DNA from: a virus
Taxonomy: Duplodnaviria > Heunggongvirae > Uroviricota > Caudoviricetes
Direction: 5' to 3' (one strand)
Virus record (IMG/VR): IMGVR_UViG_2663762992_000011
DNA length: 14,898 nt
Part shown: positions 1,327 to 10,924 of the stretch, piece by piece
Numbering within the stretch: position 1 is the stretch's first letter
Layout of the letters: each line of letters begins with the position of its first letter
The notes under the pieces: model-generated
What the model was told of the DNA's origin: nothing
What the model saw: only the letters and a program-made list of their open reading frames with translations
The model's database searches: none
Position numbers and translations under genes: made by a program

Positions 1327-1498
1327 GCCAACAGGAACACCACAACCACAAAAACGCTACAAAGATGCCCACGGAGCACTCGTTACTGTCGAAAGCGTGT
1401 CTCACAACCGAGTGACGTTTTATCGCGACGGGTATCAATCGCCATGCGTACAACCGCTGGCACGTTTCATGAAGGAGTTCGCGGAGGTTAACCAATGA
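1319..1498 (+). CDS. Small hypothetical protein (59 aa), possibly a conserved small prophage protein (DUF4222-like; tentative)
   Basis: ATG at 1319 overlaps the stop of the upstream gene (ATGTCTAA), suggesting translational coupling. Protein is MSKPTGTPQPQKRYKDAHGALVTVESVSHNRVTFYRDGYQSPCVQPLARFMKEFAEVNQ. Below the 60-aa cut-off as a separate ORF; appears in the track only as part of the longer frame 1232..1498. Confidence 0.4.
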   Translation: MSKPTGTPQPQKRYKDAHGALVTVESVSHNRVTFYRDGYQSPCVQPLARFMKEFAEVNQ

Positions 1499-1916
1499 TA
1501 CCCGTCCAGAAGAAGACATTTTCACTGGCTGGTATGTCGCCAAAATCCAGCAATATGACGGCAAAGTCAGGCATTAATACAGCAGATGCAAGCAAAGTTT
1601 ATCATTTGCTGGTGGTCGGAACGGATGCCTTAACCATACCAGAAATCACGGGCGATGATGTTAGCGTTGAGAAGGTCAGCGGCTGCGCCAGAGAATTTCT
1701 GGTCGTAGATGACCTGTTCTGCTCGTGTAGTGACTCCACAAAAACATTCGTCCACGCGCGTGACGTTAACGAAATGAGCGCGATGTACTGTGCTTCTGGT
1801 TCTTCCAATAGTGAGTTTTCGGAGTCCATAAAAAAGAGCTTGCCGTTATGCGGCAACACGGTTTATGGTTATAAGGCACCTCATAAAACGGGTGCCGGGA
1901 TTGGCGTCCTGGTAAA

Positions 1917-1924
1917 TCGAATGG
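1917..1924 (+). promoter_or_regulatory. seqA-like site (TCGAATGG), complementary to the seqB-like element at 2060-2067
   Basis: Exact 8-nt match to the reverse complement of CCATTCGA at 2060-2067. A second copy overlaps the downstream RBS at 2140-2147. Arrangement resembles P4 seqA-seqB-seqC. Confidence 0.35.
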
Positions 1925-1932
1925 CGACATAT

Positions 1933-1954
1933 GACGCGCCGAGCGTCTTTTTTT
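1933..1954 (+). terminator. Rho-independent terminator-like hairpin (GACGC-GCCGA-GCGTC followed by TTTTTTT)
   Basis: Perfect 5-bp GC-rich stem, 5-nt loop, 7-T run, read directly from the sequence. Sits immediately after the seqA-like site. Confidence 0.5.
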
Positions 1955-2024
1955 ATGTCGTAGGTCTGACTCACCCATTTTTTGGGCGTTGGTGTATAAT
2001 CCAGCGCCTTTGTCAATCAATGGT

Positions 2025-2130
2025 GGCTCAGGCAGGGGCTTCTTCGGAAGCGCCGGTATCCATTCGAGCCGGTTACGCCAACCCTGTCTGGGCTACCACC
2101 AGCGAAATTGGCGTTTCCGGTGGTAGCGTT
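2025..2130 (+). ncRNA. Candidate C4/CI-like antisense immunity RNA (boundaries approximate)
   Basis: GC-rich untranslated segment with a GCUUC-UUCG-GAAGC tetraloop hairpin (2038-2051), a 9-bp stem GCTACCACC/GGTGGTAGC (2092-2100 / 2119-2127), and the seqB-like CCATTCGA (2060-2067) complementary to flanking TCGAATGG copies. A TATAAT hexamer lies at 1995-2000. Frame 1 over this stretch translates to a Trp/Cys-rich implausible peptide. Confidence 0.35.
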
Positions 2131-2139
2131 ACATGCTAT

Positions 2140-2148
2140 CGAATGGAG
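2140..2148 (+). promoter_or_regulatory. seqC-like site (TCGAATGGA) overlapping the RBS of the Icd-like gene
   Basis: 9-nt complementarity to 2059-2067. GGAGG (2145-2149) is the RBS for the ATG at 2157, so pairing would occlude translation initiation, as described for P1 c4 and P4 cI targets. Confidence 0.35.
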
Positions 2149-2156
2149 GCTGCCAC

Positions 2157-2351
2157 ATGCTGGCTACTACCCCTACCCAAAAACCGCAATTTATCTGGAT
2201 TATCGCCGCAGTTCGCCGCGATTGCCCGACAATTACCGCCAAAATTCATCATATTGCTGCCGAGTCTGAACGCGATGCTCGCCGTTCTCTGGTGCGCGAT
2301 CACATCTGCTTTTTTGCTGGTCGTATCCGCATGGAGGTGGCACATGATTAA
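2157..2351 (+). CDS. Small protein, Icd-like (host cell division inhibitor-like; tentative)
   Basis: ATG at 2157 with GGAGG RBS 7 nt upstream. 64-aa product MLATTPTQKPQFIWIIAAVRRDCPTITAKIHHIAAESERDARRSLVRDHICFFAGRIRMEVAHD. Its position right after the C4/CI-like RNA matches the P1 c4-icd layout. The ESERDARR...FAGR pattern matches my recollection of Icd-like proteins; not verified. Confidence 0.5.
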   Translation: MLATTPTQKPQFIWIIAAVRRDCPTITAKIHHIAAESERDARRSLVRDHICFFAGRIRMEVAHD

Positions 2352-2562
2352 AACCTACGATGTGCATATGGATCCCCTCGAACGCACAAGCCAGATCATC
2401 ACACTGACAGAAGTGATTAACGACATTCTGGTGAGCAACTCTCCCTCACGAGACGAAAGACTAAAGGCGTTACTCGCGATATTGGATCTCGCCGTTCGTG
2501 ACGTTCATTTCCTGCTGGAAGGTGGACAAATGCCATGCAAAACGGGGGCAACCAATGAATAA
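2344..2562 (+). CDS. Small hypothetical protein (72 aa)
   Basis: ATG at 2344 overlaps the stop of the previous gene (ATGATTAA). Plausible protein-like sequence MIKTYDVHMDPLERTSQIITLTEVINDILVSNSPSRDERLKALLAILDLAVRDVHFLLEGGQ... Confidence 0.5.
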   Translation: MIKTYDVHMDPLERTSQIITLTEVINDILVSNSPSRDERLKALLAILDLAVRDVHFLLEGGQMPCKTGATNE

Positions 2563-2749
2563 CTCAATTAATACCCCTCGCCTTACGTCCGCACTTCAAT
2601 TAATCGAGCAAGCAGCGGCTGTCCTGGTTGCTGTCAGTCTTTCGGCTGAAGAAATGGACGCTGCTGATGTCGTGGATGCGATTAAAGCGTGCTCATCTTT
2701 GGTTAACGATGCCCGTGCCGAGCTGGTAATTCTTGGGGGTGAAAAATGA
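2555..2749 (+). CDS. Small hypothetical protein (64 aa)
   Basis: ATG at 2555 overlaps the previous stop (ATGAATAA). The ORF track shows the same frame from 2498; the shorter coupled start is preferred. Confidence 0.45.
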   Translation: MNNSINTPRLTSALQLIEQAAAVLVAVSLSAEEMDAADVVDAIKACSSLVNDARAELVILGGEK

Positions 2750-3009
2750 ATATCAACTTAATTTATCGTCATCCGTGTGAGCTGGAAATTGAATCATTGC
2801 TGGGGCGCGAAGAGCCATATCCAGACACATTCACTCCCGCAGATTGCGCGACTGAACGGCTTACCAGAGCGCGCACAGGTCTGGTTCATGTGATGAATGA
2901 GATTGTTCCCTCGGTGGGAGGGGAACAGGCGACAGTAATCAATAGCTGGCTACAAAAAGTTACCTCCCTGATAGATATCGGTTTAATCGATGTGGAGAGT
3001 GCGAAATGA
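2746..3009 (+). CDS. Small hypothetical protein (87 aa)
   Basis: ATGA overlap with the upstream stop. ORF from the six-frame track. Confidence 0.5.
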   Translation: MNINLIYRHPCELEIESLLGREEPYPDTFTPADCATERLTRARTGLVHVMNEIVPSVGGEQATVINSWLQKVTSLIDIGLIDVESAK

Positions 3010-3227
3010 CCAACATCCAGCTCATTGAAGCGCAATGTCGCATCGAACAGGTTCAGACTGTTTTAGGGTTCTGGCTTGAAGGGGCCAGCCCCAGCAACAG
3101 AGACAAGTTAATGATTGGCGCGGTTATGTCACTGCTCAATGGCGTACCAGAAGCTATTCAGGAAGCGGACGAATTGTTGGGCAAATATGAGTTACAGAAT
3201 CATTCAGGCGAGGCAAAACATGAATAA
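3006..3227 (+). CDS. Small hypothetical protein (73 aa)
   Basis: ATGA overlap with the upstream stop. ORF from the six-frame track. Confidence 0.5.
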   Translation: MTNIQLIEAQCRIEQVQTVLGFWLEGASPSNRDKLMIGAVMSLLNGVPEAIQEADELLGKYELQNHSGEAKHE

Positions 3228-3822
3228 TTTCTTAACTTTCCATGCAGAAGCAACGCCTGACGGCGTAAACATCATGTACCGCAGCAACGATGGCATGACA
3301 GAACGCGTTGAGACCGTCTCATATATTGATGCCGCAAATCGTCTGGATGCCGGGGATTATGACGATAAACCAGATGAAGGCATGTTTATACATCTCGCTA
3401 TTGCCAGTGGCGGCAACCAGGGATATTTCGATTACACATCACAGCATCACGTGATTATGTGGCGCTGGCTGATAGCAACAGCATTCATCAATGAAATGAG
3501 AAAGGAAAACGGCACCGTCAGCATTATTGATGACAGTGGCAATCATTCCGTGGTTTCTGTTTATTCCAATGGCATCGTCGCCATGCCGCTGTATCCAGTA
3601 GCAGAGCGCCTCGCTATGGCAAACAACATTGAGGGCGCAATGATCGAGAAATATGGTGTTGATGTCGGAACAAATAATGCCATCATTTTTTACAGCAACA
3701 TGTTCGATGTCGAACAGGGAACACTCACTTCGTTTGGGCGAGAAGTGCTTGCCGATCTTCACAACAGCTTTATTGCCGAACTAAACGAAAACGGCATCCC
3801 AGAAGCACCAGTGACGCACTAA
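3220..3822 (+). CDS. Hypothetical protein (200 aa) immediately upstream of the primase
   Basis: ATG at 3220 overlaps the stop of the previous ORF (ATGAATAA), same frame as track ORF 3115..3822. Position is analogous to the small gene preceding alpha in P4-type left operons; no domain recognised. Confidence 0.55.
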   Translation: MNNFLTFHAEATPDGVNIMYRSNDGMTERVETVSYIDAANRLDAGDYDDKPDEGMFIHLAIASGGNQGYFDYTSQHHVIMWRWLIATAFINEMRKENGTVSIIDDSGNHSVVSVYSNGIVAMPLYPVAERLAMANNIEGAMIEKYGVDVGTNNAIIFYSNMFDVEQGTLTSFGREVLADLHNSFIAELNENGIPEAPVTH

Positions 3823-3834
3823 ACGGGGGCCAGA

Positions 3835-6591
3835 ATGCGAAACATTGATCTTATCCGTCAGGTTATCAGTGCGTCTGAAAACAACTGGCCTCATGTGCTG
3901 GGCTGCCTGAACATAAATGTCCCTGACTCTCCGCGCCGTCATGCTCCCTGCCCTGCATGTGGGGGCAAAGATCGATTCCGGTTCGATGACAACGGGCGCG
4001 GTAGCTTCATCTGTAATCAGTGCGGCGCTGGTGATGGGCTGGATTTAATTAAACGCGTAAATAACTGCGACACAACAGAGGCGGCGCTGCTTGCCGCTGA
4101 TGTTCTGGGTATTGATTACCGGACAACGGAAACACCAGAAGCCACCAGCCAGAAACGGGAACAACTGGAAACCGAGCGCCAGCGACGCGAACAGGAGCGC
4201 CTGAAAAGGGCGGAGAAGGACGAACAACAAAGACGGGATACGTTTTCCCGTCAGTTTGATGACATGCGCAGAAAGGCTGTAAACGGCAAATCTGATTATC
4301 TGGTTGCGAAAGGGGTAGGTGATTTTACATTCCCCGTGTTGCCCGATGGATCTCTGTTGCTGGCGCTGGTGGATAAATCCGGCGCAGTCACAGCAGCACA
4401 GACTATTACCTCACATGGTGAAAAAAGACTCCTGACAGGTTCAGCAAAGCGGGGGGCATATCACGCCATAAACGCACCAGAAACAACACAGAGCATCTTA
4501 ATCGCAGAAGGGCTGGCAACGGCATTATCTGCCCATTTAATTCGTCCAGAGGCGCTGACAGTGGCGGCGATTGATGCCGGGAACCTGTTATATGTCGCCC
4601 AGGTACTGCGGGATAAATTTCCTTCAGCACAAATCATCATTGCTGCGGATAACGACCACAGCGAAGGAAGACAAAACACGGGGAGAATAGCAGCAGAAAA
4701 AGCAGCTTTATCTGTTTCTGGATGGGTGGCATTACCCCCGACAGGTCACAAAGCAGACTGGAATGATTACCACCAAAAACACGGCATTAAATGCGCCACA
4801 GAAGCGTTCAATAAGTCAATGTACCAACCACAGGGTAATGGCGTGAAACAGGAGCCACAGACCATTGAGGGAAGCGATTTTAAGGTTATGGATACCGACC
4901 CACTGAAACCAAGAATAGAAAGCCGCGAGGATGGTATTTATTGGGTATCTCCGAGAGCTGACAGCCAGAGTGGAGAAATCATCAATAACGAAAGCTGGTT
5001 ATGTTCTCCGTTAAGCGTTATCGGTACTGGCAGAGACGATAAAGACCAGTATCTCATTCTTCGCTGGCTGTCGTTTGGTTCTGAAACGCCGACAACCGCT
5101 GCCATTCCACTGGCTGATATTGGTGAACGTGAAGGATGGCGCACACTTAAAGCTGGTGGGGTAAATGTCACGACCAAAAGCAGCCTCAGAGCAATACTGG
5201 CAGACTGGCTACAACGCAGTGGCTCTCGTGAATTGTGGCGTGTTGCTCATGCCACTGGCTGGCAATGCGGAGCGTACATCATGCCTGATGGGGAAATCAT
5301 CGGAACACCTGAAAATCCTGTGCTGTTCAGCGGGAGAAGCTCAGCCGCAGCCGGATATACCGTCTCAGGGAGCGCGAAAAGCTGGCGTGATAACGTGGCG
5401 CGTCTGGCCTTTGGTAACTATTCAATGATGACCGGGATCGGCGCAGCACTGGCAGCGCCATTGATTGGGCTGGTGGGCGCTGACGGGTTCGGCATTCATT
5501 TCTATGAGCAGTCGAGCGCGGGTAAGACCACCACGGCAAACGTGGCGAGCAGCTTATACGGCAACCCTGATTTACTGCGGCTGACGTGGTACGGAACCGC
5601 GCTGGGGCTGGCAAATGAGGCCGCCGCCCACAATGACGGATTAATGCCGCTTGATGAAGTTGGTCAGGGCGCTGATCCTGTCAGCGTTTCACAGTCTGCC
5701 TATGCGTTATTTAACGGTGTAGGGAAACTGCAAGGCGCTAAAGATGGTGGAAACCGGGATCTAAAACGCTGGCGTACAGTGGCAATCAGCACCGGAGAAA
5801 TGGATTTAGAAACATTTATCGCTACTTCCGGGCGAAAAACCAAAGCCGGGCAACTGGTGCGACTGCTGAATATTCCGTTGAGTAAAGCAGTACGCTTTCA
5901 CGATTACCAGAACGGAAAACAGCACGCAGACGCACTGAAAGACGCTTACCAGCATCACCATGGCGCAGCCGGGCGTGAGTGGATTAAATGGCTGGCAGAC
6001 CACCAGCAACAGGCTATTAAAACTGTTCGTGATTGCGAAAGCAGATGGAGAAGCCTGATCCCATCCGATTATGGTGAGCAGGTTCACCGTGTAGCCGCGC
6101 GATTTGCCATTCTGGAGGCCGCATTGTTGTTAGGCGAGGTTGTAACAGGCTGGGATGCTCAGACATGCCGTGATGCGATACAGCACAGCTATAACGCATG
6201 GTTGCGCGAGTTCGGCACAGGTAACAAAGAGCATCAGCAGATTATTGAACAAACGGAGGCATTTCTTAATGCCTATGGGCTTAGCCGTTTTGCACCATTT
6301 CCATACACCCCGGCAGATTTGCCCATCAAAGATTTAGCCGGATACCGTCAGCGTGGAGAACATGACGAAAGTCCAATGATTTTCTACACATTCCCGGCCA
6401 CATTTGAAAAGGAGATCGCATGTGGTTTCAACGCAAAACAGTTTGCTGAAGTGTTGAAAAAAGCCGGGATGCTAACCCCACCAAACAGCGGTCGTGGATA
6501 CCAAAGAAAATCACCACGTATTCAGGGACGACAAATAAACGTTTATGTACTCAATTACCAGCCAGGAGATTACAACTCATCTGAAGAATGA
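3835..6591 (+). CDS. P4 alpha-like DNA primase-helicase (zinc-ribbon + Toprim + P-loop NTPase, 918 aa)
   Basis: N-terminal CxxC...CxxC zinc ribbon (CPACGG...CNQCG). Toprim-like motifs (ILIAEG ... IIIAADNDHSEGRQNTG with a DxD). Walker A-like SSAGKTT and Walker B-like LMPLDEVGQG in the C-terminal half. RBS-like GGGGG before the ATG at 3835. Iterons lie immediately downstream. Confidence 0.9.
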   Translation: MRNIDLIRQVISASENNWPHVLGCLNINVPDSPRRHAPCPACGGKDRFRFDDNGRGSFICNQCGAGDGLDLIKRVNNCDTTEAALLAADVLGIDYRTTETPEATSQKREQLETERQRREQERLKRAEKDEQQRRDTFSRQFDDMRRKAVNGKSDYLVAKGVGDFTFPVLPDGSLLLALVDKSGAVTAAQTITSHGEKRLLTGSAKRGAYHAINAPETTQSILIAEGLATALSAHLIRPEALTVAAIDAGNLLYVAQVLRDKFPSAQIIIAADNDHSEGRQNTGRIAAEKAALSVSGWVALPPTGHKADWNDYHQKHGIKCATEAFNKSMYQPQGNGVKQEPQTIEGSDFKVMDTDPLKPRIESREDGIYWVSPRADSQSGEIINNESWLCSPLSVIGTGRDDKDQYLILRWLSFGSETPTTAAIPLADIGEREGWRTLKAGGVNVTTKSSLRAILADWLQRSGSRELWRVAHATGWQCGAYIMPDGEIIGTPENPVLFSGRSSAAAGYTVSGSAKSWRDNVARLAFGNYSMMTGIGAALAAPLIGLVGADGFGIHFYEQSSAGKTTTANVASSLYGNPDLLRLTWYGTALGLANEAAAHNDGLMPLDEVGQGADPVSVSQSAYALFNGVGKLQGAKDGGNRDLKRWRTVAISTGEMDLETFIATSGRKTKAGQLVRLLNIPLSKAVRFHDYQNGKQHADALKDAYQHHHGAAGREWIKWLADHQQQAIKTVRDCESRWRSLIPSDYGEQVHRVAARFAILEAALLLGEVVTGWDAQTCRDAIQHSYNAWLREFGTGNKEHQQIIEQTEAFLNAYGLSRFAPFPYTPADLPIKDLAGYRQRGEHDESPMIFYTFPATFEKEIACGFNAKQFAEVLKKAGMLTPPNSGRGYQRKSPRIQGRQINVYVLNYQPGDYNSSEE

Positions 6592-7174: not shown

Positions 7175-7348
7175 ATGGCTATTTCAGTAAAGCCAGTATT
7201 GATAAGTGAGAAGCAAATGGAAGCGATAAAGAAAATTCAGGAGGAGCAGCGTAAAAAATCAGAGGTAGGAGTTGCGCCAACGATCCACGAAATTGCTCGG
7301 GGATTAATGGATAAGGCGCTGGCTTACACTTTAACTGGACGTGGGTAA
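7175..7348 (+). CDS. Small protein (57 aa), possibly a ribbon-helix-helix-type regulator; absent from the ORF track (below size cut-off)
   Basis: Strong RBS AAGGGGG 4 nt before the ATG at 7175, stop TAA at 7346-7348. Product MAISVKPVLISEKQMEAIKKIQEEQRKKSEVGVAPTIHEIARGLMDKALAYTLTGRG has a strand-helix-helix-like pattern. It directly precedes the large two-gene cargo operon. Confidence 0.45.
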   Translation: MAISVKPVLISEKQMEAIKKIQEEQRKKSEVGVAPTIHEIARGLMDKALAYTLTGRG

Positions 7349-7352
7349 ATTT

Positions 7353-8819
7353 ATGGCTACGTGGCAACAGGGTATTAATTCTGGTGGTTTTCTGGCTGGC
7401 ATTGGTGCGCAAAACGAGAATGCGCCAAAGGCAAGCGACATTAACACAACGCTTGGTCTGATCCGCGAAAACAATGAACTGGCTCGATCAGGTGCAAATA
7501 ACGTTGGTCTGACCGCGTTACGTGGTCTGGCTGGAGTTGCTGATATTTATAAGCAGCAGCAACAGCAGGAACGTAAAGCGGCATTCCAGAAAGGTTATGC
7601 GGATGCTTATGCGTCCGGCGACAGGGAGCAGATGCGTAATCTTATTACAGCATTCCCCGAAGAGTTTGAGGAAGTTCGTAAAGGCATGGGGTATGTCGAT
7701 GACGCCCAGCGGAATGATTTTGGCAATCTGGCGCTTAAGGCTCAGGTCGCTTCGTCGCTTGGTCCGGGTGCATTTGGCAGGTTCATGATGGATAACGAAA
7801 AGGAGATGCGTCGTTTAGGTATCCCTCCAGAAACTATTGCTGAAATGCAGGTTAATGACCCGCAGGGCTTCCAGCATTTCGCAGGTAATCTGGCGCTGTT
7901 TTCTCTCGGTCATGAGAAGTACTTCGATATCAAAGATCGAATGGAAGGTCGGGATATTGAGCGTGGCAAGTTGGCAGAAACAATCCGCAGCAATCAGGCT
8001 GGCGAAGCACTTCAGGCGAGAGGGCAGGATATTAGCCGAGCAAATGCGTTAACGTCAGCATATGCACCAACAGCAGCAATGCAGAATTACAATCAGTACG
8101 CTCAAATGTTAAAGGCGGATCCAGAGGGGGCGGCGGCATTTGCGGCAGCGGCTGGAATTAATACAAACGCCAAAAAATTAATGAGTGTTAGAGAAAACGA
8201 TGATGGCACTGTCACAAAATACTACACAGACGGAAGTGAAGAGCATGGAAAACTAAACCAGCCAATATCTGGAGATGGGTTTCGTCCAATAGCTTTGCCA
8301 ACAGCCCAAAAGATCATGGAAAAGTCGCCAGAAGGGGCTAAAAAAGCTGCTGGATTTGCATACAGAGTTAGGGATGCTCTTGATTCAATGGATACACTGA
8401 AAGGCCAGCTTAGCCCACAGCGAGTGGCGATCATTAATAATGCTTTGGGTAATGGGACGCTGGCTAACTTAACGCTCAGCCCAACAGAGCAGCAATACGT
8501 TGTTAATGCTAATGACGCAATAATGGCAATACTCCGTCAGGAAACAGGGGCAGCTATCGTACCTGCTGAAATGTCAAAATATTATCAAATGTATTTCCCT
8601 CAGCCTGGCGACTCCACAAAAACCATTGATACCAAGCGCCGGAAGATGGAAAACCAGTTCAATTCGCTGAAAGCTGCTTCTGGTCGAGCTTATGATGCTT
8701 TGCGGGTTATTTCAGCAGTTGACAGAGGGACTTCTTCTTCGTCGCAGACATTGCCGCAATCTGAGCAGGTATCACAGCCAGCAGCCAGCAGTAATTTTTC
8801 TTCACTATGGGGTGATTAA
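7353..8819 (+). CDS. Hypothetical protein (488 aa), Ala/Gln-rich, no recognised domain
   Basis: Long ORF (track 7341..8819; ATG at 7353 preferred). Its stop overlaps the start of the next gene (TAATGG). Composition is low-complexity and helical-looking with an S-rich C-terminus; no catalytic motif noticed. Confidence 0.7.
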   Translation: MATWQQGINSGGFLAGIGAQNENAPKASDINTTLGLIRENNELARSGANNVGLTALRGLAGVADIYKQQQQQERKAAFQKGYADAYASGDREQMRNLITAFPEEFEEVRKGMGYVDDAQRNDFGNLALKAQVASSLGPGAFGRFMMDNEKEMRRLGIPPETIAEMQVNDPQGFQHFAGNLALFSLGHEKYFDIKDRMEGRDIERGKLAETIRSNQAGEALQARGQDISRANALTSAYAPTAAMQNYNQYAQMLKADPEGAAAFAAAAGINTNAKKLMSVRENDDGTVTKYYTDGSEEHGKLNQPISGDGFRPIALPTAQKIMEKSPEGAKKAAGFAYRVRDALDSMDTLKGQLSPQRVAIINNALGNGTLANLTLSPTEQQYVVNANDAIMAILRQETGAAIVPAEMSKYYQMYFPQPGDSTKTIDTKRRKMENQFNSLKAASGRAYDALRVISAVDRGTSSSSQTLPQSEQVSQPAASSNFSSLWGD

Positions 8820-10924
8820 TGGCTAAAGCATGGAAAGATGTTATCGCCTCTCCACAGTATCAGGCGTTAGCACCAGAGCAAAAAGCGCAGGCTCAGGAGC
8901 AATACTTCAATGAAGTCGTGGCCCCGCAAGCCGGAGAAAGTGTAGAGCAGGCTAAGCAGGCTTTTTATGCTGCCTATCCACTACCATCAACGAATGAAAT
9001 AGACCGATCCCAATCAGCAACTCAAAATATTCAACATACATCATCTGATAATTCTCTTGCGTCAGGGTATGCAAAGTTAGCTACTCAGCAAAGAGAGGGG
9101 CTTGAGCGTTCAGCAGAACAGGGAGCCAGTCTTGGGGCTGCTATGCGCGATGCTATAACAGGCGAAAGCCGAATGACTCCAGAGATGGAGAGACTGCAAA
9201 ATGTCGACCTTGCCCCAGAGTTAACCTCACTCAGCATGGATGCTCTAAAAGCTCGATGGTCTCAACTTTTCGGCTCTGACGCATCTCAGGAAAAGATTCT
9301 TCAGAGCATGGGAGCGAAATTAAGGCAGGATGAGAAGGGTAACACTATCGTTTCCCTGCCATCCGGTGATTATGCTCTGAACAAGCCGGGTTTATCGCCG
9401 CAAGACGTGGCATCGTTTCTGGCTAATGCGCTGGCGTTTACACCAGCGGGCAGGGCTGGAACGGTGCTTGGTGCCATAGGAAAATCAGCAGCTACAGATT
9501 TAGCACTACAGGGAGCCACCAGCCTTGCTGGTGGAGAAGATATTGATCCGTTACAAACGGTAATTTCTGCTGGCATTGGTGGTATTGGTAAGGGGCTGGA
9601 AAATACAGCGAGTGCGGTTTCGAGGGCTGTTCGTGGTGATATGTCGCCTGAAGCAAAGGCTGCTGTCAACTTTGCATCGGAAAGAAATCTGCCGTTAATG
9701 ACCAGTGACATGCTGAAAGATAAAACCTTTATGCAGAGTCAGGCTCAGACATTAGGCGAAAGAGTTCCTTTTTTTGGAACCGGTAAGAATCGGCTGAATC
9801 AACAACAAGCACGAGAAAATTTAGTCAGAACATTTAGCGATGGTCTGGGTGGCATTTCTGATAAACAGCTTTATGAATCTGCGACTAAAGGGCAACAAAA
9901 ATTCATTGAGGCAGCAGGAAAGCGATATAACCGCATAATTGACGCTATGGGGGATACCCCTGTCGATCTCTCAAACACGGTAAAAGCTATCGACAATCAG
10001 ATTGCCGTGTTAAGCCGCCCGGGAAAATCTCAGGATAGAGCCGCGGTAAAAGTCTTGCAGCAATTTAAAGACGATATCACCAGCGGACCAAATGACCTGC
10101 GTCTGGCGAGGGAAAACAGAACCGATCTTCGAAAGCGATTTATGGCGTCATCTGACACTGTTGATAAAGATACGCTCCAGAAAGCCAGCGATATTATCTA
10201 CAAGGCATATACGGCGGATATGAAAAAAGCCGTAGCCAAAAATCTTGGAGCAGACGAAGCCATTAATATGGCAAGGGTTGATCGCTCATGGTCTAAATTC
10301 AATGACATGATGGGAAGAACGCGCGTTCAAAAGGCAATAGCCAGCGGCAAGGCCACGCCTGAGGATGTAACAAAACTCGTTTTTAGCCAAAGCCCATCAG
10401 AACGTTCTCAGCTTTACAGGCTTCTGGATGACAATGGTAGGCAAAACGCACGAGCAGCCATAGTTCAGAATGCTGTAGATAAGGCGACTGATCCGTCTGG
10501 AAATATCAGTGTTGAGAAGTTTATTAATGCGTTACACCGGAACAGGAAGCAATCAGCAACTTTCTTTAAAGGCGTACATGGAAAGGAACTGGACGGCGTT
10601 ATTAAATACCTCAACGATACAAGACACGCGGCAAAAGCGAACGTTCAAAACTTAAATGGTCAGCAGCTTTATGGATTGTTAGTTGGTGGTGGCATCATAA
10701 ACGCAGCAGTATTAGCGGGGATGCTAAAAACGGCTGCGTTTGTTGTTCCTGCTGCTGGTGCCGTAGGCGGAGCCGCGAAGGCATACGAAAGCCCTGTTAT
10801 ACGAAATGCCTTGTTACGTCTGGCAAATACGCCAAAAGGTAGCACAGCATATGACAGAGCGATCAGTACGGTCACACAATCACTGACCACAGCAGCACAA
10901 GCATCGCAAAAGGAAGCTCAATAA
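8819..10924 (+). CDS. Hypothetical protein (701 aa) with a C-terminal Gly/Ala-rich hydrophobic hairpin-like segment
   Basis: Long ORF coupled to the upstream gene. Near the C-terminus, LLVGGGIINAAVLAGMLKTAAFVVPAAGAVGGAA forms two hydrophobic Gly/Ala-zipper stretches split by KT. The rest is hydrophilic and Ala/Gln/Lys-rich. No family recognised. Confidence 0.75.
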   Translation: MAKAWKDVIASPQYQALAPEQKAQAQEQYFNEVVAPQAGESVEQAKQAFYAAYPLPSTNEIDRSQSATQNIQHTSSDNSLASGYAKLATQQREGLERSAEQGASLGAAMRDAITGESRMTPEMERLQNVDLAPELTSLSMDALKARWSQLFGSDASQEKILQSMGAKLRQDEKGNTIVSLPSGDYALNKPGLSPQDVASFLANALAFTPAGRAGTVLGAIGKSAATDLALQGATSLAGGEDIDPLQTVISAGIGGIGKGLENTASAVSRAVRGDMSPEAKAAVNFASERNLPLMTSDMLKDKTFMQSQAQTLGERVPFFGTGKNRLNQQQARENLVRTFSDGLGGISDKQLYESATKGQQKFIEAAGKRYNRIIDAMGDTPVDLSNTVKAIDNQIAVLSRPGKSQDRAAVKVLQQFKDDITSGPNDLRLARENRTDLRKRFMASSDTVDKDTLQKASDIIYKAYTADMKKAVAKNLGADEAINMARVDRSWSKFNDMMGRTRVQKAIASGKATPEDVTKLVFSQSPSERSQLYRLLDDNGRQNARAAIVQNAVDKATDPSGNISVEKFINALHRNRKQSATFFKGVHGKELDGVIKYLNDTRHAAKANVQNLNGQQLYGLLVGGGIINAAVLAGMLKTAAFVVPAAGAVGGAAKAYESPVIRNALLRLANTPKGSTAYDRAISTVTQSLTTAAQASQKEAQ

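Follow-up and report, generated by a model that had tools for sequence, protein, structure and literature searches.

Genes and features of the locus

The window, by which we mean the whole 14,898-nt stretch of DNA analysed here, carries on one strand a long open reading frame, two RNA units that lie within it, an Icd-like gene and a packed run of genes that includes a primase. The features that concern us are listed below, all on the + strand and in window coordinates.

1495..2562, +: long frame-1 ORF, eta-like, with the Pfam 'Ash' domain (ORF list; PF10554)
1840..1869, +: candidate constitutive promoter, P4 PLE-like (putative -35 TTGCCG at 1840-1845, putative -10 TATGGT at 1864-1869, 18-nt spacer)
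1876..1953, +: isrK-like small RNA of ~78 nt (two hairpins at the 5' end, then unpaired RNA, then a terminator), corresponding to the P1 a1/b1 unit and the P4 seqA region
1901..1907, +: site a1 (UUGGCGU), loop of isrK hairpin 2, complementary to a'
1917..1924, +: site b1 (UCGAAUGG), single-stranded, complementary to the b' loop
1933..1954, +: intrinsic terminator (GACGC-GCCGA-GCGUC, then U7) that ends the short RNA
1995..2000, +: TATAAT, tentative -10 for another promoter immediately before C4; 24/34 relatives conserve it
2016..2103, +: C4/CI-type antisense RNA (Rfam RF01695)
2059..2067, +: b' (UCCAUUCGA), in the loop of C4 hairpin 2
2075..2081, +: a' (ACGCCAA), the unpaired junction from hairpin 2 to the closing stem
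2108..2114, +: site a2 (UUGGCGU), in the icd leader, complementary to a'
2119..2127, +: GGUGGUAGC, partner of 2092-2100 in an alternative helix (complementarity; co-variation)
2139..2149, +: site b2 (UCGAAUGGA at 2139-2147), overlapping the icd Shine-Dalgarno sequence GGAGG at 2145-2149
2157..2351, +: Icd/Kil-like gene of 64 aa (NF033153), the first gene under presumed C4 control
2344..6591, +: co-oriented, tightly packed genes 3' of icd, comprising small ORFs and then a DUF927/Toprim primase at 3835-6591 (ORF list, Pfam, PHROG phrog_1139, RefSeq annotation of an identical island)

A first-pass annotation had called the ORF at 2157 an Icd-like gene, and both NCBIfam NF033153 (phage_ICD_like; 70.4 bits against a cut-off of 25) and homology to P4 Kil (42% identical, E = 5e-11) agree; RefSeq, too, annotates the product of 2157-2351 as Icd-like. 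Variability by codon position (0.073/0.042/0.227) shows a strong third-position bias, and GGAGG sits 7 nt before the ATG. The genes at 2344-6591 overlap or abut one another and would form an operon that the module presumably gates.

A terminated isrK-like RNA and a C4-type antisense RNA

Co-variation was assessed in 34 distinct, aligned relatives, to which all counts out of 34 refer. At 1876-1953 the Rfam isrK model (RF01394) matches over model positions 1-77 with 67.1 bits against a gathering threshold of 50, and such a unit is likewise found 5' of C4 in P4, in the P1-like RCS47, in SfV and in Gifsy-1. Hairpin 1 shows double changes in five of its six pairs across the 34 relatives. The fold of this RNA is no more stable than that of shuffled sequence (z = -0.78), and the Rfam family RF03163 (c4-a1b1) stays below threshold in the window while exceeding it in Gifsy-1; the case for the isrK-like unit is made by the covariance model and the relatives, without help from fold energy. 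The terminator-like hairpin that had been placed after the first b site (1933-1954) stands: the hairpin at 1933-1947 and its T run are detected by a terminator scan, belong to the isrK model and are near-invariant in relatives. The first b site itself is where it had been seen, and we add that it lies inside a separate, terminated small RNA. We take this terminator to be the equivalent of P4 t1, a name said to come from the work of Briani et al. in 2000.

The candidate promoter upstream of this RNA keeps its hexamers in the 34 relatives, with a spacer of constant length and variable sequence. Transcription would start at about 1876, and it is at 1876 that the Rfam isrK model begins. A sigma-70 consensus scan reported neither this candidate (1840-1869) nor the one at 1995-2000, the former because it matches the consensus at only 8 of 12 positions; for the TATAAT at 1995-2000 the promoter scan found no good -35. 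Both promoters are suggested by conservation. The P1 literature does mention a 'P2c4' promoter (PMC8198154). Around the TATAAT, a seemingly conserved hairpin (1985-1992/2001-2008) that looks co-varying by eye was rejected, being only 59.9% paired in the alignment.

The covariance-model search suggested by the first-pass annotation gives a clear positive for the second RNA: Rfam C4 (RF01695) matches 2016-2103 over its full length (model positions 1-87) with 79.5 bits against a threshold of 45 (E = 1.4e-14). The minimum-energy fold (-47.2 kcal/mol, z = -5.8) is identical to the Rfam consensus and consists of a closing stem (2021-2037/2082-2098), hairpin 1 (2038-2051) and hairpin 2 (2052-2073), the last exposing b' in a 12-nt loop, with a' unpaired between hairpin 2 and the closing stem. 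The UUCG-tetraloop hairpin predicted at 2038-2051 is exact in folding (stem 2038-2042/2047-2051, loop 2043-2046). Pairing of the closing stem is complete (100%) across the 34 relatives, four of its pairs showing double changes and nine one-sided changes. The structured RNA proper covers about 2021-2101 and lies some 60 nt 3' of the isrK-like RNA. Directly after the stem, at 2099-2101, comes a 3' CCA whose C2099 and C2100 are present in 34/34 relatives and A2101 in most. In P1 and P4 the antisense RNA is released from a longer precursor by RNase P, and the conserved CCA is compatible with a P1-type excision, which would yield an RNA of ~77 nt.

Two pairs of target sites that co-vary with the C4 loops

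The 8-mer TCGAATGG occurs at 1917-1924 and 2139-2146, and its complement CCATTCGA at 2060-2067. The first copy and the complement lie exactly where the first-pass annotation had put them, and the second copy does overlap the GGAGG ribosome-binding site of the ORF at 2157; its position, given as 2140-2147, was one base off. The downstream pairing extends to 9 nt (2139-2147 with 2059-2067). That annotation had noticed only this b pair and overlooked a second, the a pair, formed by TTGGCGT at 1901-1907 and 2108-2114 with its complement ACGCCAA at 2075-2081, so that two pairs are present, as in P1. The layout is the full P1 order: a1-b1, a C4 RNA with a' and b', then a2-b2.

The 8-mer is found five times in the window against 0.41 expected, a count reached by 0/200 shuffles, and three of the five copies fall within 230 nt. 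The 7-mer TTGGCGT, at six occurrences against 2.35 expected in the window, is not significant by count; what makes the a sites convincing is their fixed position and their co-variation in relatives. All four intermolecular helices are maintained across the 34 relatives: a'/a1 and a'/a2 are 100% paired with double changes in three of seven pairs each, b'/b1 is 100% paired with double changes in six of eight, and b'/b2 is 98.7% paired with double changes in six of nine, as against 30-51% paired in slid controls. Family-wide, a relative's own loop is matched downstream by a complement of 8 nt or more in 106/141 cases, compared with 27/2820 when loops and flanks are mismatched. Relatives in genome contigs were sought with a stem-anchored pattern scan, which yields many chance matches in GC-rich genomes and was filtered by demanding the second hairpin. 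Chance repeats as an explanation are excluded by the 8-mer shuffles, the mismatched loop/flank control and the helix co-variation.

Within b', the 5' UCC is nearly fixed (U in 30/34 relatives, both C in 34/34) and the remaining 6 nt vary; the start codon follows b2 by 7-11 nt in relatives. From this pattern UCC appears to act as an anti-Shine-Dalgarno element, with the variable 6 nt probably setting specificity. TATCCTTCAGAG is one alternative allele for pairing specificity.

Taken with the 71% identity to P4 that the suggested comparison with the cI region returned (P4 8347-8506, over 160 nt), the Rfam C4 and isrK matches, the Icd-like ORF and the compensatory changes bear out the earlier proposal of a P4/P1-type antisense-RNA immunity module. 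Lack of a covariance hit and of conserved structure or complementarity in relatives had been named as grounds against it; instead, the matches exceed their thresholds and pairing is kept by compensatory changes. Very probably, the stretch serves a P4/PICI-like satellite island of E. coli as its RNA immunity module; it is homologous to the P4 cI region and to P1 immI (c4). The module is genuine, well supported and ordinary, being of a kind already known.

An alternative helix 3' of the C4 RNA

The 9-bp stem 2092-2100/2119-2127, which the first-pass annotation had counted among the structured features of this region, is real as complementarity: it is 97.1% paired in the 34 relatives, shows double changes in four of nine pairs, occurs in P4, RCS47 and Gifsy-1, and is enriched in the family at large. 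The C4 fold does not include it, though; it is an alternative to the closing stem, the outer part of which it excludes; it is absent from the minimum-energy fold because it competes with that stem. In the classical P1/P4 accounts consulted we found no earlier description of it.

By joining the 3' strand of the closing stem to the a2-b2 spacer, the alternative helix would display a2 in a hairpin loop, much as a1 is displayed in isrK; an inner 4-bp stem giving a 6-nt a2 loop (2104-2107/2115-2118, a register one base off) is 70.6% paired. Such a helix could switch the transcript between maturing into the C4 repressor and remaining mRNA or terminating, and together with a terminated a1/b1 decoy RNA it could make up a self-balancing three-RNA circuit. 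That the module holds one regulatory layer beyond the classical P1/P4 descriptions, comprising this switch, the three-RNA circuit and a selected translation across icd (below), is a speculative idea which we regard as rather doubtful.

The long frame-1 ORF

Starting in an ATGA overlap with a DUF4222 gene, the long ORF includes the conserved AUG at 2020 and crosses isrK, C4, a2 and b2; it then runs over icd in another frame, to end together with the small ORF 2344-2562. Its Pfam match (PF10554, Phage_ASH; 105 bits, aa 124-232, nt 1864-2190), the RefSeq label 'ash family protein' and an excess of open frames through C4 on the sense strand (75/138 relatives) over the antisense strand (32/138) could be read as signs of a functional 'Ash' protein beside which the RNA-like features would be incidental. 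We consider this very improbable. The Pfam domain span is exactly that of isrK, C4 and a2/b2; variability by codon position over the module is flat (0.160/0.179/0.164), in contrast to the strong bias in icd; and the substitutions track base-pairing instead. The frame over the module shows no protein-type constraint, which is to say no purifying selection of the kind that would mark PF10554 as a protein here. Furthermore, the P4 'ash/cI' ORF is, according to P4 annotations, a historical misreading of the CI RNA, and RefSeq itself marks the feature in the window as a partial pseudogene. The N-terminal part is without distant homologues: with the first 127 aa as query, every homologue found was a close relative with an identity of 70% or more, and in close relatives codon-position counts for 1495-1875 show very few differences.

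Translation of this ORF through the region had been offered as something that would speak against the RNA module. The objection does not hold, given the flat codon-position pattern in the frame and the precedent of P4, whose eta ORF is described as translated through the cI RNA region in PMC10111431, citing Forti et al. 1999. Because in some close relatives the 'ash' ORF is called with a length of only about 155-218 aa, the eta-like read-through is possibly not kept everywhere. Icd is in frame with the long ORF in only 8/34 relatives, and not in the window; in most enteric relatives the frame from the conserved C4-stem AUG stays open across icd, in a reading frame different from that of icd, which might point to selected 'translation for its own sake'.

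A model for silencing of the replication genes, and its rivals

By homology with P1, P4 and Gifsy-1, we infer the functional steps as follows. The constitutive promoter at ~1840-1869 would fire continuously, and the terminator at 1933-1954 would stop most transcripts. From those that read through, perhaps also from the second promoter at ~1995-2000, a stable C4-like RNA would be processed, whose a' and b' would pair with a2 and b2 on other transcripts, blocking ribosome entry at icd and causing premature termination or polarity; icd, the small ORFs and the primase would stay silent and the island quiescent. Pairing of C4 with a1/b1 beside the terminator may autoregulate C4 synthesis, as at P4 t1, and the short a1/b1 RNA could titrate C4 and so activate the operon, as for IsrK in Gifsy-1. 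On transcripts made at induction from the upstream alpA/antA promoter, translation of the long frame-1 ORF would pass through the module and make these transcripts resistant to the RNA, as with P4 eta. The specificity of immunity would be set by the variable 6 nt of b' together with the a' sequence. Precedents exist for the individual elements: without C4 RNA the P1 icd-ant operon is not fully repressed (PMC8198154), the CI/seqA/eta/kil logic of P4 and C4 and isrK matches in Gram-negative PICIs have been described (PMC10111431), and IsrK acts in trans on a read-through transcript, with mutations in the a1/a' equivalents altering its action (PMC4825925).

The weight given here to translational block at icd could instead belong to antisense-dependent termination. 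P4 termination elements comprise t1, t4 and then the Rho-dependent timm, and control in the window might run mainly through such elements, with occlusion of the icd ribosome-binding site secondary. P4 is the closest sequence relative, and its RNA controls premature termination (PMC10111431; PMC4825925); in the window an intrinsic terminator stands directly 3' of a1 and b1, and the co-varying alternative hairpin between C4 and b2 could be t4-like. That hairpin, however, is followed by no U-rich tract in the window. Moreover, b2 always overlaps the Shine-Dalgarno sequence and b' keeps its anti-Shine-Dalgarno UCC, which fits a translational block. We hold that termination dominates to be possible, if not the expectation.

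Less to be expected is a switch that mainly activates, in the manner of IsrK in Gifsy-1, in which the read-through RNA would be inactive by itself (a1 pairing with a' in cis, the ribosome-binding site sequestered) until opened in trans by the short RNA, and the processed C4-like RNA would be a by-product rather than a repressor. Gifsy-1 does share the isrK-C4 tandem, and the conserved AUG at the foot of the C4 stem is the start of its orf45; the residues tested there, G28 and G31 of IsrK and C159 and C162 of orf45, are the equivalents of a1 and a', and IsrK toxicity is not relieved by constitutive processed RNA (PMC4825925). In P1 and P4, on the other hand, genetics has identified the processed RNA as the immunity factor (PMC8198154; PMC10111431), and a2 and b2 are conserved and co-vary with the folded C4 loops, neither of which a purely cis-folding model needs. 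Such a switch is unlikely to be the main mode of control, and it is in any event compatible with repression by C4, since a decoy can titrate a repressor.

Comparison with known systems

Nearest in sequence is the P4 immunity region (PLE - seqA - t1 - cI/CI RNA - seqC - kil, nested in eta). The two share an isrK-like unit with its terminator, a C4-type RNA, equal a and b positions (isrK 26 and 42; +5 and +36 after C4), a GGAGGCUGCC-AUG context, a homologous first gene and a primase operon downstream, as well as a long ORF coupled to an upstream gene that crosses the RNAs (PMC10111431). The P4 terminator homologue, GACGCGCCACGCGUC-U6, separates the upstream target from the RNA gene. P4 and the window do not share their a and b sequences, GUGAGAA and UUCACAGG in P4 against UUGGCGU and UCGAAUGG in the window, which amounts to a different specificity. 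The spacer from terminator to C4 is 62 nt in the window versus 107 in P4, the primase of the window is of the DUF927 type with 918 aa, and the island carries P22-like ejection genes rather than P4 sid, delta and psu. Whereas P4 kil is the in-frame end of eta, icd in the window is out of frame with the long ORF (to 2562), a minor difference that does not take the module out of the family.

With P1/P7 immI the module shares the two-site architecture (a1 b1 / a' b' / a2 b2), a b2 lying over the icd ribosome-binding site, Icd as first gene and a specificity set by loop sequences; in the P1-like RCS47 the same Rfam isrK and C4 tandem lies between pacB and ant. The P1/P7 operon (icd, ant1/2) ends in an antirepressor, the one in the window in primase and replication genes. 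Unlike in P1, an AntA-type antirepressor gene lies 5' of the module, and there is no sign of a C1-type operator in the window.

The isrK-orf45-anrP region of Gifsy-1 (IsrK sRNA; STnc1160) has in common an isrK unit, a2/b2 before the ribosome-binding site of the next gene and the conserved AUG in the C4 stem. Its C4 match, 25 nt after isrK, corresponds to the 'orf45' region and the processed STnc1160 RNA (PMC4825925). It differs in controlling an antirepressor directly, without icd, in its shorter b' loop, in lying in the late region of a lambdoid prophage, and in a published mechanism of activation by a short RNA; it is only for Gifsy-1 that isrK has been shown to be an Hfq-associated sRNA activating read-through translation in trans (PMC4825925). 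The geometry of the isrK-C4 tandem is equal in P4, the P1-like RCS47 immI, SfV and Gifsy-1.

With its integration, Bro, replication and late zones, the island as a whole is of the same kind as the Gram-negative and helper-embedded PICIs of Mageeney et al. 2023 (PMC10111431). In that work Rfam C4 and isrK profiles detect CI/seqA relatives within the 'Bro network' (Phage_ASH) genes, with no site-by-site analysis; that E. coli PICI satellites match C4 and isrK was already reported in 2023.

Annotation and significance

As a discovery the module carries little weight; its use is for annotation. DNA matching it occurs in 1167 of 5426 complete E. coli genomes, roughly one in five, the RefSeq feature there being a partial 'ash family protein' pseudogene instead of two small RNAs. 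One carrier is E. coli 042 (NC_017626, 4202442-4202962), with 99.8% identity. PHROGs, for its part, labels the Icd/Kil-like protein 'transcriptional repressor', a name carried over from the former P4 cI ORF. With the module recognised, one can see how this satellite-like island would hold its replication genes silent. The many a'/b' alleles found beside near-identical Icd proteins constitute a ready set of orthogonal RNA repressor/target pairs, and their diversity offers an explanation for heteroimmunity between co-resident islands.

RNA module and icd

The P4/P1-type antisense-RNA architecture that the first-pass annotation had proposed at 1840-2160 is borne out by two Rfam families, by homology to P4 cI and by the layout of its pairing sites, in which a1 and b1 are upstream targets, a' and b' complementary stretches in the C4-like RNA, and a2 and b2 targets in the icd leader.

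Features of the module
1840-1845 and 1864-1869: -35 and -10 of a candidate promoter
1876-1953: isrK (RF01394)
1901-1907: a1, TTGGCGT
1917-1924: b1, TCGAATGG
1933-1947 plus T run: terminator
1995-2000: TATAAT
2016-2103: C4 (RF01695)
2021-2037/2082-2098: C4 closing stem
2038-2051: UUCG hairpin
2060-2067: b', CCATTCGA
2075-2081: a', ACGCCAA
2108-2114: a2, TTGGCGT
2139-2147: b2, 9-nt pairing
2145-2149: GGAGG
2157-2351 (+): icd

At the gathering threshold, the window gave exactly two Rfam matches, C4 (79.5 bits, threshold 45) and isrK (67.1 bits, threshold 50). Furthermore, P4 8347-8506, annotated in GenBank still as a 137-aa 'cI' or 'ash' ORF, aligns to the module at 71% identity. The C4 segment is predicted to fold into the family consensus (-47.2 kcal/mol, z = -5.8), with the closing stem, the UUCG hairpin picked out earlier, a second hairpin whose 12-nt loop holds b', and a' unpaired; the terminator suggested behind the first site was likewise confirmed. 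The 8-mer TCGAATGG occurs five times in the window (0.41 expected; none of 200 shuffles reaches five). Its first site and its complement CCATTCGA are where they had been placed, but its second site lies at 2139-2146 rather than 2140-2147. Pairing there does overlap the GGAGG, as proposed, and the ATG at 2157 follows after 7 nt. The a sites had been overlooked; with them, the order becomes a1-b1, an RNA bearing a' and b', and a2-b2, as in the published layout of P1 c4.

The ORF behind these sites is Icd-like (NCBIfam NF033153, 70 bits), and its product is 42% identical to P4 Kil (E = 5e-11). PHROGs labels this protein 'transcriptional repressor' (phrog_1743, phrog_6928), apparently a legacy of the old P4 'cI 137 aa' ORF, the C-terminus of which is Kil. 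A 72-aa ORF (2344-2562) has a strong GGAGG at 2333-2337 and an ATG (2344-2346) overlapping the last icd codons (stop 2349-2351); Pfam, NCBIfam and PHROG gave no match for it, and the RefSeq record examined leaves it unannotated.

Co-variation and specificity alleles

Relatives were gathered by a pattern anchored on the conserved stems with the loops left free; 141 distinct relatives, whose loops are highly diverse, were compared. Complementarity is kept among them: the loop has a downstream complement 8 nt or longer in its own flank in 106 of 141 (27 of 2820 mismatched loop/flank pairs) and an upstream complement of at least 7 nt in 85 of 141 (86 of 2820 mismatched pairs). Both a' and b' track two targets each at fixed positions, with the start codon 7-11 nt after b2. 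In an alignment of 34 fixed-geometry relatives (A1), slid controls were 30-51% paired.

Intermolecular helices in A1 (n = 34): cells paired; pairs changed on both sides
b'/b2: 98.7%; 6 of 9
a'/a2: 100%; 3 of 7
b'/b1: 100%; 6 of 8
a'/a1: 100%; 3 of 7

The b' loop carries a 5' UCC whose U is kept in 30 of 34 relatives and whose two C are kept in all 34; this triplet base-pairs with GGA in the Shine-Dalgarno sequence. The remaining six bases of the loop are variable. In some relatives, b1-b' pairing holds only via G·U pairs. A dozen or more b' alleles, and several of a', precede near-identical Icd proteins (relative loci L002-L241), and the two have recombined independently of each other: b' TTTCCGATAACG, for one, is found in combination with a' TACGCCAA or AAGACCAAC. 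Such allelic variety with near-identical Icd is a signature of diversifying immunity specificity, as in P1 versus P7.

We additionally ran Rfam over the P4 region, RCS47 immI (P1-like; between pacB and ant), SfV orf37 and the whole of Gifsy-1, and in all four an isrK match is followed 24-107 nt on by a C4 match. The geometry is equal in the window, P4 and RCS47 (a1 at isrK position 26-27, b1 at 42-44; a2, b2 and GGAGG at +5, +36 and +42 after C4), differences being confined to the a and b sequences.

Pairing sites: a site; b site
Window: UUGGCGU; UCGAAUGG
P4: GUGAGAA; UUCACAGG
RCS47: UUGAGAC; GUCAAAGG

The Gifsy-1 C4 match (34131-34214, minus strand, 69 bits) is the 'orf45' region of the isrK-orf45-anrP locus, i.e., the processed STnc1160 RNA; RF03163, the Rfam family for a1/b1 targets, overlaps isrK there. 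The residues mutated in the Gifsy-1 study (IsrK G28 and G31; orf45 C159 and C162) fall within a1 and a' of the P1 nomenclature.

The 9-bp stem noted earlier at 2092-2100/2119-2127 is indeed a co-varying helix, but it is an alternative to the outer C4 closing stem and does not form in the minimum-energy fold. Pairing reaches 97.1% in relatives, and four pairs show double changes; a C-to-U change in the C4 3' strand, which keeps a G·U in the closing stem, is matched by G-to-A in the downstream strand. P4, RCS47 and Gifsy-1 also have this helix, and it is enriched across the wider family, 21 of 73 relatives having a complement 8 nt or longer versus 41 of 1095 controls. With this helix formed, a2 would sit in a hairpin loop; we found no description of it in the accessible literature.

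The long open frame

Translation of a long frame-1 ORF through the module had been raised as an objection to the RNA. The frame is open (1495-2562, plus strand), its start overlapping the DUF4222 gene before it by ATGA, yet the RNA reading stands, because codon-position variability in this frame over the module is flat (0.160/0.179/0.164), unlike that of icd (0.073/0.042/0.227), because substitutions in the module track base-pairing (A1), because a homology search with the N-terminal, non-RNA part found close homologues only, and because P4 shows the same arrangement, its open frame 8821-8168 joining the eta start region, a conserved AUG at the C4-stem base and Kil as the last 65 aa.

A frame is open through the module in sense in 75 of 138 relatives, versus 32 of 138 in antisense. 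Whereas Kil is the in-frame end of the P4 frame, icd is out of frame in the window and 26 of 34 relatives, the long ORF staying open across it; in the other 8 of 34 icd is in frame, like kil in P4 eta. At the foot of the closing stem's 5' strand, the AUG (2020) is invariant across all 34 relatives; it opens a frame that crosses icd out of frame and stops at 2562, and the same AUG is the first one of Gifsy-1 orf45. Pfam Phage_ASH (PF10554) matches the long ORF at aa 124-232 (nt 1864-2190), which is exactly isrK, C4 and a2/b2, and in RefSeq the module carries a partial pseudogene labelled 'ash family protein'. Since this frame has no codon-position bias, conservation of the 'ash' family seems due to RNA constraints.

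Proposed regulation

From P1, P4 and Gifsy-1 we infer the functional steps that would accompany the observed anatomy and co-variation. The candidate promoter, its -35 and -10 conserved in relatives around a variable 18-nt spacer, would start transcription near 1876. An inverted repeat, TTGCCG-TTATG-CGGCAA (1840-1856), includes the putative -35 and has the score of a terminator-like site on the minus strand; since the spacer differs in relatives, the repeat is lineage-specific, and it might be an operator or mere chance. Most transcripts would stop at the terminator, giving a short a1/b1 RNA, and read-through transcripts, once processed, would yield the C4-like RNA. The TATAAT, 8-20 nt ahead of the C4 stem and kept by 24 of 34 relatives, has no recognisable -35; it may be a second promoter adding C4 precursor transcripts, since P1 papers mention a 'P2c4' promoter (PMC8198154).

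The C4-like RNA would pair with a2 and b2, occluding the icd RBS and causing premature termination or polarity, and thus switch off icd and the primase operon. Pairing at a1/b1 beside the terminator would autoregulate C4 synthesis; autoregulation of CI/C4-type RNA synthesis is reportedly the role that Briani et al. gave P4 t1 in 2000. By titrating C4, the short a1/b1 RNA could in turn activate the operon, in the manner of IsrK in Gifsy-1 (PMC4825925). Transcripts that come from the alpA/antA operon upstream and are translated across the module would evade this control, comparable to P4 eta; according to PMC10111431, with reference to Forti et al. (1999), late-promoter transcripts are the ones from which eta is translated, such translation preventing termination.

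Island context and significance

An identical locus lies in E. coli UTAK-8, in an island adjoining srkA and dsbA and ordered integrase, AlpA, AntA-type antirepressor, DUF4222, RNA module and icd, then small ORFs, a DUF927/Toprim primase and P22-type ejection proteins. This is the integration/Bro/replication/late layout of Gram-negative PICIs, a satellite island type (PMC10111431). The module stretch is matched in 1167 of 5426 complete E. coli genomes. In the window, two large P22-type DNA ejection/injection protein genes (7341-10924; phrog_917, and phrog_770 with a transglycosylase part) sit in the late zone of the primase-bearing island, with no capsid genes within the window.

Curated in Rfam, the C4 and isrK families go back to the description by Weinberg et al. 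2010 (PMC2864571), and the homology of IsrK/STnc1160 to P4 CI is discussed in PMC4825925; both profiles match Gram-negative PICIs inside Phage_ASH 'Bro' genes, in a study that also explains the eta/kil/CI logic (PMC10111431). With the families curated and the PICI matches published, the locus is thus an ordinary case of a known system, and a well-supported one; its value lies in the correction of annotation and, as a lesser point, in the co-varying alternative helix.
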